A stretch of 64,000 nt of DNA from an uncultured Alphaproteobacteria bacterium (lineage in GTDB: Bacteria > Pseudomonadota > Alphaproteobacteria > HIMB59 > GCA-002718135). The stretch covers positions 83,726-147,725 of the forward strand of contig CACNND010000001.1 of NCBI GenBank assembly GCA_902621725.1, in the 5' to 3' direction. Made by a program: the position numbers and the translations under genes. Each line of letters begins with the position of its first letter. The stretch's first letter is position 1. The notes below the pieces were generated by a model. It was given only the letters and a program-made list of their open reading frames with translations. It ran no database searches and had not been told where the DNA came from. Below are positions 58,872 to 62,763 of the stretch, piece by piece.

Positions 58872-59063
58872 TTATAGAATAATCTCAAAAACTCTTTCCT
58901 TATCTTTTTCTAAAACCTTTTTTATTTTAAACTTTGCAGTTTTTGTAAGTTTGATTCCTTTATTTGTCACAAATGATTTCATTTTAATTACTTCTTTTTC
59001 AGGCATTTTTCTTTCATATTTCAATATATGTTTCTCTCCACTGATAATAAATGCAGTTTTCAT
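58872..59063 (-). CDS. Small basic hypothetical protein (63 aa)
   Basis: Lys-rich ORF preceded by a good SD (AAGGAGA, 6 nt before the ATG). No family recognised. It competes with the antisense ORF 58834..59094. Confidence 0.4.
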   Translation of the reverse strand: MKTAFIISGEKHILKYERKMPEKEVIKMKSFVTNKGIKLTKTAKFKIKKVLEKDKERVFEIIL

Positions 59064-59083: not shown

Positions 59084-59117
59084 AAGAGAGGTAAAATTAC
59101 CTCTCTTAATTTTTTTT
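59084..59117. terminator. Strong 10-bp hairpin just downstream of amt-1; the T-tract is on the plus-strand side
   Basis: AAGAGAGGTA (59084-59093) pairs with TACCTCTCTT (59098-59107) around a 4-nt loop. AATTTTTTTT follows on the plus strand. On the minus strand the A-tract precedes the hairpin. Confidence 0.55.
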
Positions 59118-59124
59118 ATAAGTA

Positions 59125-60411
59125 TTAATCTCTTATTGAATAAGCTACAACTCCTACCTCAGCCTTATCAGTTCCAAGTTTTTCAGCTTCTTCACTAATT
59201 CTTAATCCCATAATATTTTTAATTAAATATATTACAATATATGAGAAAACAAAAACAAAGATACATACTGATGCAACACCTAATAACTGAATTGCGTATG
59301 ATGCATCAGGATTAGTTAGAGGGACAACTAATGTTCCCCAAATTCCAGCAAACATATGTACAGGTATTGCACCAACAACATCGTCTAGTTTTAATGAATT
59401 TAAGAAGTTAGTTCCATAATACATTATAATTCCTCCAACTACTCCAATTCCAATTGCAAGCAATGGACTAGGCATTAATGGCTCAGCTGTTATTGAAACT
59501 AGACCAGCAAGAGCTCCATTTAGCATCATGACAATATCGGTTTTACCACCAATCAATCTTGTTATTGCTGCACCAGCCATACATCCACCACAAGCTGCAA
59601 GTTGAGTGTTCATAAAAATTTTAGACATTGCTGTTGCATCTTCATAAGAACCTAATGCAAGTTGTGAGCCACCATTAAAACCATACCAACCCATCCATAA
59701 AATAAATGTACCTAGAGTAACTAATGGAATTGATGATGGAGCAAATGGAGCCATATTAGCTGGTTCACCACTTGCGCTAAATCTCCCAAGTCTTGGACCT
59801 AAAAGAATTACACCAGCCAAGGCGGCTGAACCACCACAAGCATGAACTAATGTTGAACCTGCAAAATCCGCAAATCCAAGGGCGTCTAACCATCCTCCAC
59901 CCCATTCCCAACCCATTTGAATTGGATAAATCACTCCTCCAAGAACTGCTGCAAAAGTAAAGAAAGGCCAAATTTTTATTCGCTCTGCGACCGCACCCGA
60001 TACAATTGAAACAGTAGCACAAACAAATAAAGCTTGAAAAAACCAGTCGGAAGCATCTGAGTAACCTGTTTCCATTGATGTATTGTCAGTCCATATGGAT
60101 GGTATACCAATATAACCTCCTTCAGGGACAGAATATCCAAGATTATATCCTATTAAATAGAAAACAATTGAAACTATTGCGAACTTTCCAATATTTTTAG
60201 CAGCAATAGTTGATACACTTCTGGTTGTAACAAGACCTGATTCTAAAAATAGAAAACCTGCAGCCATCCACATGACTAAAAATCCACATACTAGAAAAGA
60301 AAATGTATTAAATATATATGCTACTTCTGCGTCAACCTCTGCCCTCACAGATGAACTTAGCAACAAAATAAATGAGAGTATTGTAAAAAGACTAAAAAAT
60401 TTTTTATACAT
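59125..60411 (-). CDS. amt: Ammonium transporter (Amt family), copy 1
   Basis: Signal peptide, MWMAAGF..LESG, SIVSGAVAERIK, DFAGSTLVH, 428 aa. Confidence 0.95.
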   Translation of the reverse strand: MYKKFFSLFTILSFILLLSSSVRAEVDAEVAYIFNTFSFLVCGFLVMWMAAGFLFLESGLVTTRSVSTIAAKNIGKFAIVSIVFYLIGYNLGYSVPEGGYIGIPSIWTDNTSMETGYSDASDWFFQALFVCATVSIVSGAVAERIKIWPFFTFAAVLGGVIYPIQMGWEWGGGWLDALGFADFAGSTLVHACGGSAALAGVILLGPRLGRFSASGEPANMAPFAPSSIPLVTLGTFILWMGWYGFNGGSQLALGSYEDATAMSKIFMNTQLAACGGCMAGAAITRLIGGKTDIVMMLNGALAGLVSITAEPLMPSPLLAIGIGVVGGIIMYYGTNFLNSLKLDDVVGAIPVHMFAGIWGTLVVPLTNPDASYAIQLLGVASVCIFVFVFSYIVIYLIKNIMGLRISEEAEKLGTDKAEVGVVAYSIRD

Positions 60412-60501
60412 TATTAAACTCCATATAAAATTATAAACACATAACTACCCTTTAGTTATGCATTAAATCATGCGTAGCTATGGAAATTAATTACTAAGAT
60501 C

Positions 60502-60552
60502 CGCGTTCCTTCGGGTATACCTACTTCCGATTTGCGAACTGCAAATTGAACG
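60502..60552 (-). promoter_or_regulatory. Glutamine riboswitch aptamer (glnA RNA motif), gene-proximal, amt-1 leader
   Basis: Minus strand: CGUUCAAUUUGCAGUUCGCAAAUCGGAAGUAGGUAUACCCGAAGGAACGCG. It has the CGUUC/GAACG closing helix, an internal hairpin, and the conserved GGAAGUAG and GAAGGAACGC strings. Confidence 0.8.
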
Positions 60553-60568
60553 ATTAATAACTTTGCAT

Positions 60569-60619
60569 GCGTTCCTTCGACTATCGTCTACTTCCGTCAC
60601 TCTAATTGAGTGATGAACG
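60569..60619 (-). promoter_or_regulatory. Glutamine riboswitch aptamer (glnA RNA motif), distal, amt-1 leader
   Basis: Minus strand: CGUUCAUCACUCAAUUAGAGUGACGGAAGUAGACGAUAGUCGAAGGAACGC. Same architecture, 16 nt upstream of the proximal aptamer. Confidence 0.8.
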
Positions 60620-60688
60620 TGAATTGAGTTATAGCTATAATTTGAAAACTATCAAGAAATAGTATTAGATTTAGTTAATAAAATCTGA

Positions 60689-61114
60689 TTAATTTTCTAA
60701 ACTCATCTTACTAAAAAATGAACCTTCTTTTCTTAACCATGTATTAATCATATCGAGAAAATTATTGCTTAAATAATAATTTTTAATTCGTTTGTCTGAC
60801 TTACTTTGCTCTTTAATAAAAATATTTTTTTCTAAAGCTTCGTTTAAAATAGATTGAATAGATGATCTAGATCCAATTGACTTAGGTATATTTGCGCAAA
60901 TTGTTTCAAATGAAATTCCGTTCAATTTATTATTTTCATATATTTCAAGAGAGATAACATGGTGTAAAATTGATTTAAATAAAAATTTAGAGACGTAATC
61001 TTCTGAAAAGAAGCTAGAATATATGTTTCTTTTTTTCTCTTTAATTATTTCTGCTTCAGTCATTAAATATCTCAATAATATTTTGCTATTTTGGGAGAGC
61101 AAATGCTCTCCCAT
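60689..61114 (-). CDS. Small winged-helix (MarR-like) putative transcription regulator
   Basis: ISFETICANIPKSIGSRSSIQSILNEALEKNIFIKEQSKSDKRIKNYYLS reads as an HTH recognition helix plus a beta-wing with the D(K/R)R typical of MarR-type wHTH proteins. An alternative start at 61063 (MTEAEII...) would avoid the hairpin at 61093-61112. Confidence 0.55.
   Translation of the reverse strand: MGEHLLSQNSKILLRYLMTEAEIIKEKKRNIYSSFFSEDYVSKFLFKSILHHVISLEIYENNKLNGISFETICANIPKSIGSRSSIQSILNEALEKNIFIKEQSKSDKRIKNYYLSNNFLDMINTWLRKEGSFFSKMSLEN
61093..61112 (-). other. GC-rich 8-bp hairpin between amt-2 and the wHTH gene
   Basis: GGGAGAGC (61093-61100) pairs with GCTCTCCC (61105-61112) around a 4-nt loop. There is no clear U-tract on the minus strand. 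It overlaps the ATG at 61114-61112. Confidence 0.45.
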
Positions 61115-61162: not shown

Positions 61163-62449
61163 TTAGTCTCTGATGCTGTAAGCCATTACACCTACTTCAG
61201 ATTTATCAGTACCAAGTTTTTCAGCTTCTTCACTAATTCTAATACCAAAGAGCATTTTCATGATGTACCAAATAATAAATGATACAACAAAAACGAAAAC
61301 GTTAATTGCCACAATTCCGTAAAGTTGTGCACCAAAACTTGCTGCTGTGTTTGAAATTGGAACTACTAATGTTCCAAAAATTCCAGCAAAACCATGTACT
61401 GGAATTGCTCCAACAACATCATCGATTTTAAGTGATATTAAAAGTCTTGTTCCATAAAAAACGATTAATCCACCTATTGCACCAATAATTACTGCTAGGA
61501 AAGGAGAAGGAGCTAATGGTTCTGCAGTTATTGCTACAAGACCACCTAATGCCCCATTAAGCATCATTACAACATCTGTTTTACCCGTTACTAGTCTTGA
61601 AATAACAGCACAAGCCATTACACCTGCACCAGCTGCCAGGTTAGTATTAATATATATTGTTGCTACTGCTGTTACATCATCAAATGTACCCATAGCTAAT
61701 TGTGATCCGCCATTAAATCCGAACCATCCAAGCCACAGGATAAATACACCTAAAGTTGCAAGAGGAATTGATGAATTTGCAAAAGGCTCCATTGGAGCTG
61801 CTTCACCACTATCAGTAAAACGTCCTAATCTTGGACCTAACAAAATTGCACCAGCAAGTGCTGCTGCCGCTCCTGCACTATGTACCAGGGTTGAGCCAGC
61901 AAAATCTGAGAAACCTGCTTCTGCTAGGTATCCTCCACCCCATTGCCAACCCATTTCGATTGGATAAATGAAACCTGTTAACAAAGCACAAAAAATAAAA
62001 AATGGCCAAATTTTGATTCTTTCAGCTAATGTTCCAGATACGATTGAGCAAGTTGTTGCACAAAATACCATCTGAAAGAACCAGTCAGAACCATCTGAAT
62101 AACCTGTATCAAGAGCACTACCATCACTCCAAGGAAGCGGAGATCCGATAAAGCCACCTGCAGGAATGCCATATGCCATGTTATATCCAACTAACCAGAA
62201 CATTAAACCAGCTATAGAATATAAGCCTATATTTTTTGCAGCTATTGTTGCTACACTTTTAGACGTTACAAGTCCTGATTCAAGCATTGCAAATCCTGCT
62301 GCCATCCACATGACTAAGAACCCAGATACAAGAAATAGGAATGTATTTAAAATGTATTGCACTTCACCATCTACTTCGGCTCTTGCGTATGAACTAAAGA
62401 GCATAAAGACGGCAATAATGCTAATGAAATATATAGATTTTTTTAACAT
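61163..62449 (-). CDS. amt: Ammonium transporter (Amt family), copy 2
   Basis: Colinear with copy 1, and 428 aa if started at 62449. By eye about two-thirds of residues are identical. The ATG at 62449 has a GGAGGA SD 5 nt upstream; the track start at 62479 adds 10 aa. Confidence 0.95.
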   Translation of the reverse strand: MLKKSIYFISIIAVFMLFSSYARAEVDGEVQYILNTFLFLVSGFLVMWMAAGFAMLESGLVTSKSVATIAAKNIGLYSIAGLMFWLVGYNMAYGIPAGGFIGSPLPWSDGSALDTGYSDGSDWFFQMVFCATTCSIVSGTLAERIKIWPFFIFCALLTGFIYPIEMGWQWGGGYLAEAGFSDFAGSTLVHSAGAAAALAGAILLGPRLGRFTDSGEAAPMEPFANSSIPLATLGVFILWLGWFGFNGGSQLAMGTFDDVTAVATIYINTNLAAGAGVMACAVISRLVTGKTDVVMMLNGALGGLVAITAEPLAPSPFLAVIIGAIGGLIVFYGTRLLISLKIDDVVGAIPVHGFAGIFGTLVVPISNTAASFGAQLYGIVAINVFVFVVSFIIWYIMKMLFGIRISEEAEKLGTDKSEVGVMAYSIRD

Positions 62450-62540
62450 TAATCCTCCATTATAAATTTCACAGTACATGGCTCACATTGAGTCATGCGT
62501 TACTTTTCATGCTTAGCTATGGAAATTAATTACTAAGATC

Positions 62541-62591
62541 CGCGTTCCTTCGGTTTAACCTACTTCCGATTTGCCTAAGGCAAATTGAACG
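62541..62591 (-). promoter_or_regulatory. Glutamine riboswitch aptamer (glnA RNA motif), gene-proximal, amt-2 leader
   Basis: Minus strand: CGUUCAAUUUGCCUUAGGCAAAUCGGAAGUAGGUUAAACCGAAGGAACGCG. The hairpin differs from the amt-1 copy but stays paired. Confidence 0.8.
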
Positions 62592-62607
62592 ATTTATAAC
62601 TTTGCAT

Positions 62608-62658
62608 GCGTTCCTTCGACATTCGTCTACTTCCGTCACCCTAAAAGAGTGATGAACG
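62608..62658 (-). promoter_or_regulatory. Glutamine riboswitch aptamer (glnA RNA motif), distal, amt-2 leader
   Basis: Minus strand: CGUUCAUCACUCUUUUAGGGUGACGGAAGUAGACGAAUGUCGAAGGAACGC. Confidence 0.8.
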
Positions 62659-62763
62659 TATTAGATGAAATAGTTTATTATTAAATTTTAGTAAGAATAT
62701 TTAAGAGAATATTGGTATGCAATAATTGCATATATTAAAAAAACTACTAAATCTGCCAAAATA

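Follow-up and report, generated by a model that had tools for sequence, protein, structure and literature searches.

How does a marine bacterium of the SAR11 type match its uptake of ammonium to its nitrogen supply? This question is raised by an RNA leader that we analyzed in a 64,000-nucleotide (nt) stretch of DNA, referred to here as the window (contig CACNND010000001.1 of assembly GCA_902621725.1; positions are counted from the first letter of the stretch). The leader lies on the minus strand directly upstream of amt-1 (59125–60411, minus strand), which codes for a 428-residue Amt-family ammonium transporter with a signal peptide-like N-terminus (PF00909, E = 4.3e-96), so the nitrogen-uptake context assigned to it in an initial annotation of the sequence is correct. 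SAR11, the most abundant marine bacterium, lacks PII, GlnD and NtrBC according to Smith et al. 2013, which asks how these cells sense nitrogen and speculates about riboswitches on their Amt paralogs. A second question comes from Klahn et al. 2018 (PMC6212724), which states as unknown both the taxonomic affiliation of the glutamine riboswitch elements that precede nitrogen-assimilation genes and the direction in which they regulate. The tandem glutamine riboswitches described here, on amt and glnA genes of SAR11-like genomes, are concrete constructs for testing both.

Rfam cmscan of the whole window returned four matches, all of them to RF01739 (gathering score 35), all on the minus strand, and all covering the full-length model (positions 1–53, none truncated). 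Two lie in the amt-1 leader: aptamer 1 at 60566–60621 (61.5 bits, E = 3.7e-11) and aptamer 2 at 60500–60554 (54.7 bits, E = 2.9e-09). The other pair lies in the leader of a second transporter gene, amt-2, with aptamer 1 at 62605–62660 (60.8 bits) and aptamer 2 at 62539–62593 (60.0 bits). Each pair shares its strand with an Amt gene, whose start codon follows 92–93 nt downstream. Relaxing the limit to E = 0.1 added nothing further in the window, and RF01704, the Glutamine-II or Downstream-peptide motif, had no match in the window at the same limit. From the letters alone, the initial annotation had assigned the amt-1 leader to the glnA motif, and the covariance model bears this out strongly for both units. 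It had described two 51-nt units, 16 nt apart on the minus strand, in the 277-nt gap between the end of the upstream open reading frame (ORF) at 60689 and the start of amt-1 at 60411, and each element that it named is present: the CGUUC...GAACG closing helix, the internal hairpins (UCACUC/GAGUGA in unit 1 and AUUUGC/GCAAAU in unit 2), and the core strings GGAAGUAG and GAAGGAACGC in both units. The range that it gave, 60502–60619, takes in both aptamers; the downstream expression platform (60412–60502) and the second pair (62539–62660) fall outside it.

The details of the two units are those of the glutamine aptamer. Read on the minus strand, unit 1 (60619–60569) is CGUUC AUCACUC-AAUUA-GAGUGA CGGAAGUAG ACG-AUAG-UCG AAGGAACG C, and unit 2 (60552–60502) is CGUUC AAUUUGC-AGUUC-GCAAAU CGGAAGUAG G..CC GAAGGAACG CG. 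The junction strands CGGAAGUAG and GAAGGAACGC, which hold the E-loop and the nucleotides of the binding pocket, are exact in all four aptamers of the window, and so is the closing helix P1 (CGUUC/GAACG) around the three-stem junction; in amt-1 it spans 60619–60570 in aptamer 1 and 60552–60504 in aptamer 2. A C lies directly 3' of every P1 (60569 and 60503 in the amt-1 leader, 62608 and 62542 in the amt-2 leader). This is the linchpin C: in the published mechanism of the class (PMC6212724 and PMC11477058), glutamine recruits a junction G to the C that is 3' of P1, forming the G23–C60 pair and stabilizing P1. To place these features among relatives we aligned 36 leaders (no more than 95% identical) of amt and glnA genes from SAR11- and SAR116-type genomes. 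In this alignment the junction strands are invariant columns and P1 is both invariant and 100% paired, while the aptamer hairpins P2 and P3 covary, with changes on both sides in 9 of 9 pairs in aptamer 1 and in 6 of 8 pairs in aptamer 2. Counting all helices that were tested, 93.4% of cells are paired, compared with 25–39% when the partners are slid, and none of 500 shuffles reached the observed covariation score. We therefore consider it very likely that, in a SAR11-like marine alphaproteobacterium, the leader of the ammonium-transporter gene amt-1 contains two complete type-1 glutamine riboswitch aptamers. Their ligand is predicted to be L-glutamine from membership of RF01739.

The literature has described this aptamer class, including tandem copies and the association with ammonium transporters in marine sequences, since 2010–2011 (Weinberg et al. 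2010, PMC2864571; Ames and Breaker 2011, as cited in PMC10265488 and PMC11508383); ammonium transporters are among the genes that Weinberg et al. place behind glnA RNAs. The leader is a textbook member of RF01739, and the window is almost certainly an instance of the tandem glnA RNAs described in those papers; the tandem glnA motifs of marine metagenomes share with it the class, the tandem arrangement, the associated genes (ammonium transporters and glutamine synthetase) and the habitat. The earlier tandem sequences, however, were taxonomically unassigned environmental reads; our analysis assigns the carrier to SAR11-like genomes and proposes an expression platform. Our literature search found neither an assignment of amt- or glnA-linked elements to SAR11 nor a description of their expression platform. 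Two "novel riboswitch-like structures" that Meyer 2009 reports from intergenic regions of 125 and 146 nt are probably different elements, since those regions are too short for a leader of about 215 nt.

Which organisms carry this design? The window itself is SAR11-like (Pelagibacterales) on sequence grounds, because the Amt-1 protein is 99.3% identical to the Amt of the single-amplified genome AG-422-E02 and 83–91% identical to those of Pelagibacteraceae metagenome-assembled genomes (MAGs), a homolog of a neighboring small ORF is named "Pelagibacteraceae bacterium", and the G+C content is 30%. We then scanned GTDB, with one genome per species, for a tandem-junction pattern (GAAGGAACGC-N8-30-CGTTCA-N10-24-CGGAAGTAG) that occurs twice in the window where 0.00 occurrences were expected from 100 shuffles. 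The pattern was found at 119 or more loci, of which at least 13 have two aptamer pairs about 2040 nt apart, as in the window. The matches listed belong, by their titles, to SAR11-type single-cell genomes, Pelagibacteraceae, Pelagibacterales, SAR116 (Puniceispirillales), SAR86, Rhodospirillaceae, marine Beta- and Gammaproteobacteria and one Dehalococcoidales MAG, and no cyanobacteria. An Amt gene lies behind 69 of 128 tandem arrays among the matches listed; other genes found behind the listed arrays are a type-I glutamine synthetase and a 468-residue circularly permuted (CP) ATP-grasp protein, and, where the array comes from SAR86 or another gammaproteobacterium, a type-II-like glutamine synthetase and a Gcw_chp porin-like protein. 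What is new here is the assignment of the carrier to SAR11-like genomes, together with the presence of the tandem design upstream of amt, glnA and the CP-ATP-grasp gene at the 119 or more marine proteobacterial loci.

How might the two aptamers act on the gene behind them? The region between aptamer 1 and the start codon contains three conserved features. The first is a proposed long-range helix (LR). Its 5' strand is the inter-aptamer linker CAUGCAAAGUUAU (60557–60569), which starts at the linchpin C of aptamer 1, and its 3' strand is AUAGCUACGCAUG (60469–60481), so that the helix encloses aptamer 2 and the hairpin that follows it. The linker is, surprisingly, more than a free spacer. It is complementary to the platform segment AUAGCUnnGCAUG beyond aptamer 2: CAUGC-AA-AGUUAU faces AUAGCU-nn-GCAUG in stretches of 5 and 6 bp separated by a 2x2 loop. 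Two strings never vary in the 36 leaders, CAUGC immediately 3' of P1 in aptamer 1 and GCAUGA about 35 nt past aptamer 2, and RNAalifold recovers the CAUGC/GCAUG part of the helix. Across 53 distinct linker/platform pairs the LR duplex has a free energy of −10.3 to −12.5 kcal/mol (mean −11.3), compared with −4.7 kcal/mol for shuffled linkers. Variants keep the pairing–for example, A-U becomes G-U in CP-ATP-grasp leaders and, as a one-sided change, in L010–and the internal loops vary as 2x2 and 3x3, with both sides growing together, and also as 1x2 and 3x2; one glnA type has an extended helix. A mini upstream ORF (uORF) starting at the invariant GCAUGA was considered and ruled out, judged by eye, as it lacks a Shine-Dalgarno (SD) sequence and its length and frame vary.

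The second feature is the hairpin P4, GGAUCUUAGUAAUUAAUUUCC (60482–60502), directly after the linchpin C of aptamer 2, in which GGA pairs with UCC about 18 nt downstream. This pairing holds in 88% of cells, without double changes; relatives have the variants GGAU:AUCC and GGAA:UUCC (seen by eye), and P4 is part of the minimum free energy (MFE) fold when both P1 helices are enforced. The third feature is a proposed anti-SD tract, UUUCCAUA (60479–60486), which overlaps the other two: its UCC belongs to the 3' strand of P4 and its AUA to the 3' strand of LR. The tract is complementary to (U)AUGGAG, and 93% of cells are paired with AUGGAG. The duplex between the tract and the initiation region has a mean free energy of −8.9 kcal/mol, compared with −4.4 for shuffles (median rank 2 of 100). 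Between the tract and the gene there is a spacer hairpin, P5 (CAUAACUA-AAGGG-UAGUUAUG, 60440–60460), whose sequence is variable and whose shape is conserved, with changes on both sides in 5 of 8 pairs. The ribosome-binding region of amt-1 (60409–60424), read from the sequence and the ORF list, consists of AUGGAG at 60424–60419 and the start codon AUG at 60411–60409; in most Amt leaders the start codon is 86–96 nt after aptamer 2 (78–96 nt overall). No intrinsic terminator was found in either leader: the coding (minus) strand of 60412–60500 and 62450–62540 has no terminator-like site. A promoter scan gave fewer promoter-like matches than in shuffles.

These features suggest that the amt-1 leader could be a translational OFF switch, which our analysis makes an even proposition. 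Without glutamine, CAUGC-AA-AGUUAU of the linker would pair with AUAGCU-nn-GCAUG past aptamer 2 (the LR clamp) and GGA after aptamer 2 would pair with UCC (the P4 clamp); the two clamps would hold UUUCCAUA, the ribosome site AUGGAG would be open, and Amt would be made. With glutamine, the C following each P1 would be drawn into the linchpin pair and the helix attached to that P1 would melt. Ligand-induced linchpin pairing and melting of the P1-attached helix were established for the class by Ren 2015, as related in PMC6212724 and PMC11477058. In the amt-1 leader the attached helices would be the two clamps, as LR begins at linchpin C 60569 and P4 begins one base after linchpin C 60503. The freed UUUCCAUA would then pair with (U)AUGGAG and neighboring bases, blocking initiation. 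The output would be OFF because the clamps hold the anti-SD tract and not the ribosome site, so that the same action of the ligand releases UUUCCAUA. The polarity–that is, which of the two states glutamine favors–we infer from this arrangement. With two sites favoring the same conformational flip, the response would be steeper than with one.

In folding models the leaders behave as two-state elements. When both P1 helices are enforced, the MFE structure is the P1/P4/LR junction in 7 of 7 diverse leaders, with the SD sequence unpaired in most of them. When the 4 nt after each P1 are kept unpaired, an extended anti-SD:SD helix takes over in all seven leaders, and this costs 0.7–7.1 kcal/mol. Over 64 Amt leaders, freeing these tails makes positions −13 to +3 less accessible: their mean unpaired probability is 0.62 before and 0.30 after, with a decrease in 63 of the 64. 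In one leader of the window 0.66 becomes 0.39 and in the other 0.71 becomes 0.29, a drop that was seen in none of 100 linker/platform shuffles per leader. Sliding a 4-nt block along the window leaders closes the site only in the LR strands, in CGGA after aptamer 2 and, more weakly, in the P5 stem.

Several results weigh against the OFF switch. The platform helices have no compensatory double changes in the alignment: one part of LR (LR-a) never varies, and the other part (LR-b) and P4 vary one-sidedly or lose pairs. Covariation between anti-SD and SD that is specific to lineages was not found, as cognate pairs (−8.17 kcal/mol) are no better than non-cognate pairs (−8.28) and 1430 of 2000 permutations were as good; AU-rich flanks pair promiscuously. 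Taken as a bare helix of 6 bp, the anti-SD:SD pairing falls short of LR plus P4 by about 12 kcal/mol (+1 versus −12 kcal/mol), and only the extended, AU-rich anti-SD:SD helix comes within 1–7 kcal/mol of them. In a cruder test, in which leaders with P1 enforced were compared with leaders that were unconstrained or had the 5' strands of P1 blocked, SD accessibility did not move consistently in one direction. At the main start, complementarity to the anti-SD tract is weaker or absent in leaders of the glnA and CP-ATP-grasp types. In the cultured strain HTCC1062, which may or may not carry these leaders and for which four Amt paralogs are described, the adjacent paralogs SAR11_0049/0050 were unchanged by nitrogen limitation. 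Finally, the OFF polarity depends on a structural result transferred from a cyanobacterial aptamer, and the glutamine riboswitches tested in vivo are, in the available literature, ON switches only.

The tandem arrangement could plausibly sharpen the response of the amt-1 leader, as the initial annotation suggested and as PMC2864571 had already proposed for tandem glnA RNAs. An alternative is that the two aptamers are independent, that is, single riboswitches in series whose occupancy is only additive, so that the response is no steeper. In the folding model, most of the closure is reached when only one of the two tails is freed (0.36 or 0.46, compared with 0.30 for both and the baseline of 0.62, over the 64 Amt leaders), and one review counts the tandem domains of glnA with those that "sense ligands independently". 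The two aptamers nevertheless share one platform: in the window their spacer is 16–17 nt long, with no ORF or terminator-like site between them, and in SAR11-type leaders the linker is 17–19 nt long, nearly invariant and complementary to the platform, which ties both aptamers to one switch. We consider independent action unlikely, while giving it real weight.

Somewhat less probable again is the opposite polarity, in which the same tandem aptamers make a translational ON switch. Here glutamine would stabilize both P1 helices and a three-way junction of P1 of aptamer 2, P4 and LR, stacked on P1 of aptamer 1, so that the anti-SD tract is locked and the site is open; without glutamine the junction would fall apart, UUUCCAUA would cover the site, and Amt would be made when nitrogen is plentiful, for instance for ammonia export or control of a futile cycle. 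Besides the record of the riboswitches tested in vivo, this polarity draws on the MFE fold with P1 enforced, which is the LR plus P4 junction with the SD sequence mostly open, on a mean SD accessibility of 0.52 when P1 is enforced, slightly above the 0.40 seen without constraints, and on Smith et al. 2013, who report that the SAR11_1310 Amt was seen only in nitrogen-replete cells and who speculated that glutamine activates its translation. It has to contend, however, with the geometry of the clamps, since the first pair of LR uses C 60569, which the ligand-bound linchpin needs, and P4 starts one base past the other linchpin C. The same platform also precedes glnA, and the type-I glutamine synthetase of SAR11 rises under nitrogen limitation, more in protein than in mRNA, which fits OFF. 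Among the arrays there is a clean split between assimilation genes, which have relay platforms, and small ORFs, whose platforms carry a direct anti-SD; this suggests opposite polarities. A relay-type platform on amt and glnA, genes that cells turn down at high glutamine, fits the OFF switch.

Quite improbable is a third explanation, that the aptamers are genuine and are read out by Rho-dependent termination, RNase access or mRNA stability, with the conserved linker and platform serving tertiary packing or a protein or RNase site and not the proposed helices: LR-a and much of the platform are invariant and do not covary, as expected of a sequence-specific contact, the anti-SD complementarity is not lineage-specific, and CP-ATP-grasp leaders keep the platform without complementarity to the main ribosome site, but the linker/platform and UUUCCAUA/AUGGAG complementarities are far above shuffles, the distance from aptamer 2 to the start is held in the range given above, and no intrinsic terminator was found in either leader on its coding strand.

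Returning to the OFF switch, the conserved platform (linker helix, P4 clamp and anti-SD tract) is also new here, and gives a testable, mutable model that would invert the known ON mechanism. More broadly, and tentatively, as a possibility that we put short of even, tandem glutamine riboswitches may form the core nitrogen-status regulon of SAR11 and SAR116, both without the PII/NtrBC system, in which amt, glnA and the CP-ATP-grasp gene would each be governed by a two-input OFF switch through a previously undescribed platform, by relayed and inverted melting below P1.

One of the closest known systems is the riboswitch in the 5' untranslated region of Synechocystis gifB (Klahn et al. 2018, PMC6212724), which is of the same Rfam family, controls translation, and has the linchpin C and its neighbors in a helix thought to be melted by glutamine. 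It differs in being a single aptamer, on a gene for a glutamine-synthetase-inactivating factor, and an ON switch in which the bases next to the linchpin pair directly with the ribosome site; the window has two aptamers, on assimilation genes, and its linchpin-adjacent helices hold the anti-SD tract, an extra relay that would invert the output to OFF. The tandem glycine riboswitch (RF00504), to which the initial annotation likened the pair, likewise has two aptamers for the same amino acid, one platform, a conserved structural linker and a proposed steeper response, but its fold is unrelated and it relies on tertiary contacts between aptamers and a leader-linker kink-turn, whereas coupling in the window is proposed to run through the linker-platform helix and the shared anti-SD tract. 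RF01704 has a related glutamine-binding core and a marine distribution; in contrast to the window elements it is pseudoknotted, restricted to picocyanobacteria and located upstream of short ORFs. The AmtB-GlnK (PII) system also throttles ammonium uptake according to the glutamine and nitrogen status of the cell. It is protein-based and post-translational, whereas in the window the proposed sensor is RNA, acting at translation, and amt is followed by a MarR-like ORF and not by glnK.

A duplicated riboswitch-amt cassette precedes the paralog located 2 kb upstream of amt-1. This gene, amt-2 (61163–62449, minus strand), codes for another Amt-family transporter (PF00909, E = 1.3e-97). The two proteins are 65.4% identical, from which we conclude that the duplication is old. 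Identity between the leaders is 91% over the part that runs from aptamer 1 to GCAUGA and 60% beyond it. The platform of amt-2 (62447–62541, minus strand) has P4, the anti-SD tract and the LR 3' strand as in amt-1 (62508–62541), followed by a different P5 (62477–62497), AUGGAGG and the start codon AUG at 62449–62447, and the MFE fold of the amt-2 leader contains the LR helix. The true start of amt-2 is likely to be 62449 and not the mechanical ORF start at 62479, because GGAGG lies 5 nt before that ATG. The mechanical ORF (MYCEIYNGGL...) begins 30 nt too early, and the SD-proximal ATG aligns with the start of amt-1; some 438-residue database entries carry the extension. A three-codon frame, AUG-GAG-GAU-UAA, overlaps the amt-2 start (UAAUG).

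Close relatives differ in the cassette. Two copies are present in the window, whereas locus L120, with the same flanks (GFO/IDH/MocA on one side; DUF179, DsbD, Redoxin and SDR on the other), has a single riboswitch-amt cassette, which is amt-1-like and lacks the MarR-like ORF. In L036, L053 and L060 the MarR-like ORF is followed directly by a 63-residue ORF, and these loci therefore have no amt-1 cassette. The MarR-like ORF of the window (60689–61114, minus strand; probable start 61063, giving 124 residues in place of 141) is conserved and lies between amt-2 and the amt-1 leader. It had no Pfam match and no sequence match in PDB, and all 412 of its homologs are annotated as "hypothetical". An AlphaFold2 model is weak (pLDDT 58.6); its top 50 Foldseek matches are only to winged-helix regulators of the MarR family, with TM scores of about 0.5. 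Homologs, down to 42–51% identity, lie directly downstream of riboswitch-controlled amt genes in many SAR11 loci, the position at which glnK adjoins amtB in bacteria with PII.

The scan also brought out other arrangements of the region between aptamers and gene. A second tandem class, whose spacer is nearly always 9 nt long (two members have 5 and 10 nt), precedes only basic ORFs of 30–65 residues, with ends such as ...KKDVFFPYYL. Its members (L004, L009, L013, L033, L034, L037, L041, L049, L054, L062, L068, L073, L076, L080, L097, L101, L103, L107 and L114) come from SAR86, Beta- and Gammaproteobacteria, Rhodospirillaceae and one Dehalococcoidales MAG. In this class a hairpin, CAUCU..AGGAGAUG, places an anti-SD directly at the linchpin C, resembling the ON design of gifB. 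The small ORFs are candidates for analogues of glutamine-synthetase-inactivating factors outside the cyanobacteria; in Pfam they had no match, for example to DUF4278, the domain of such factors.

Leaders of the CP-ATP-grasp gene (L002, L018, L021, L028, L038 and others; for example L028:5220–5476) keep the platform and also have a uORF of 20 codons, with a stop codon that overlaps the main start (TGATG). The start context of this uORF, CUAUGG, is by eye perfectly complementary to CCAUAG of the platform. The arrangement suggests that the CP-ATP-grasp gene may be controlled via translational coupling. A third type of platform is found in SAR86 and Gammaproteobacteria (L050, L020, L023, L066 and L108), upstream of the type-II-like glutamine synthetase and the Gcw_chp porin-like gene. 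By eye, its linker of 22–25 nt forms a hairpin of its own, CGUUA..UAACG, beside the linchpin C, a second hairpin, GUUAAAC..GUUUAAC, follows aptamer 2, and UUAACUUCUAUU is repeated just before the ribosome site.

Just downstream of amt-1 there is a lysine-rich ORF of 63 residues (MKTAFIISGEKHILKYERKMPEKEV...; 58872–59063, minus strand), which is 76–92% identical in 33 related loci, is gene-called in L120–L123 and has no Pfam match on record. Between amt-1 and a convergent plus-strand ORF that ends at 59094 lies a palindromic, GC-containing hairpin, AAGAGAGGTAAAATTACCTCTCTT (59084–59107), with T-runs on both flanks, which from its sequence looks like a bidirectional terminator.

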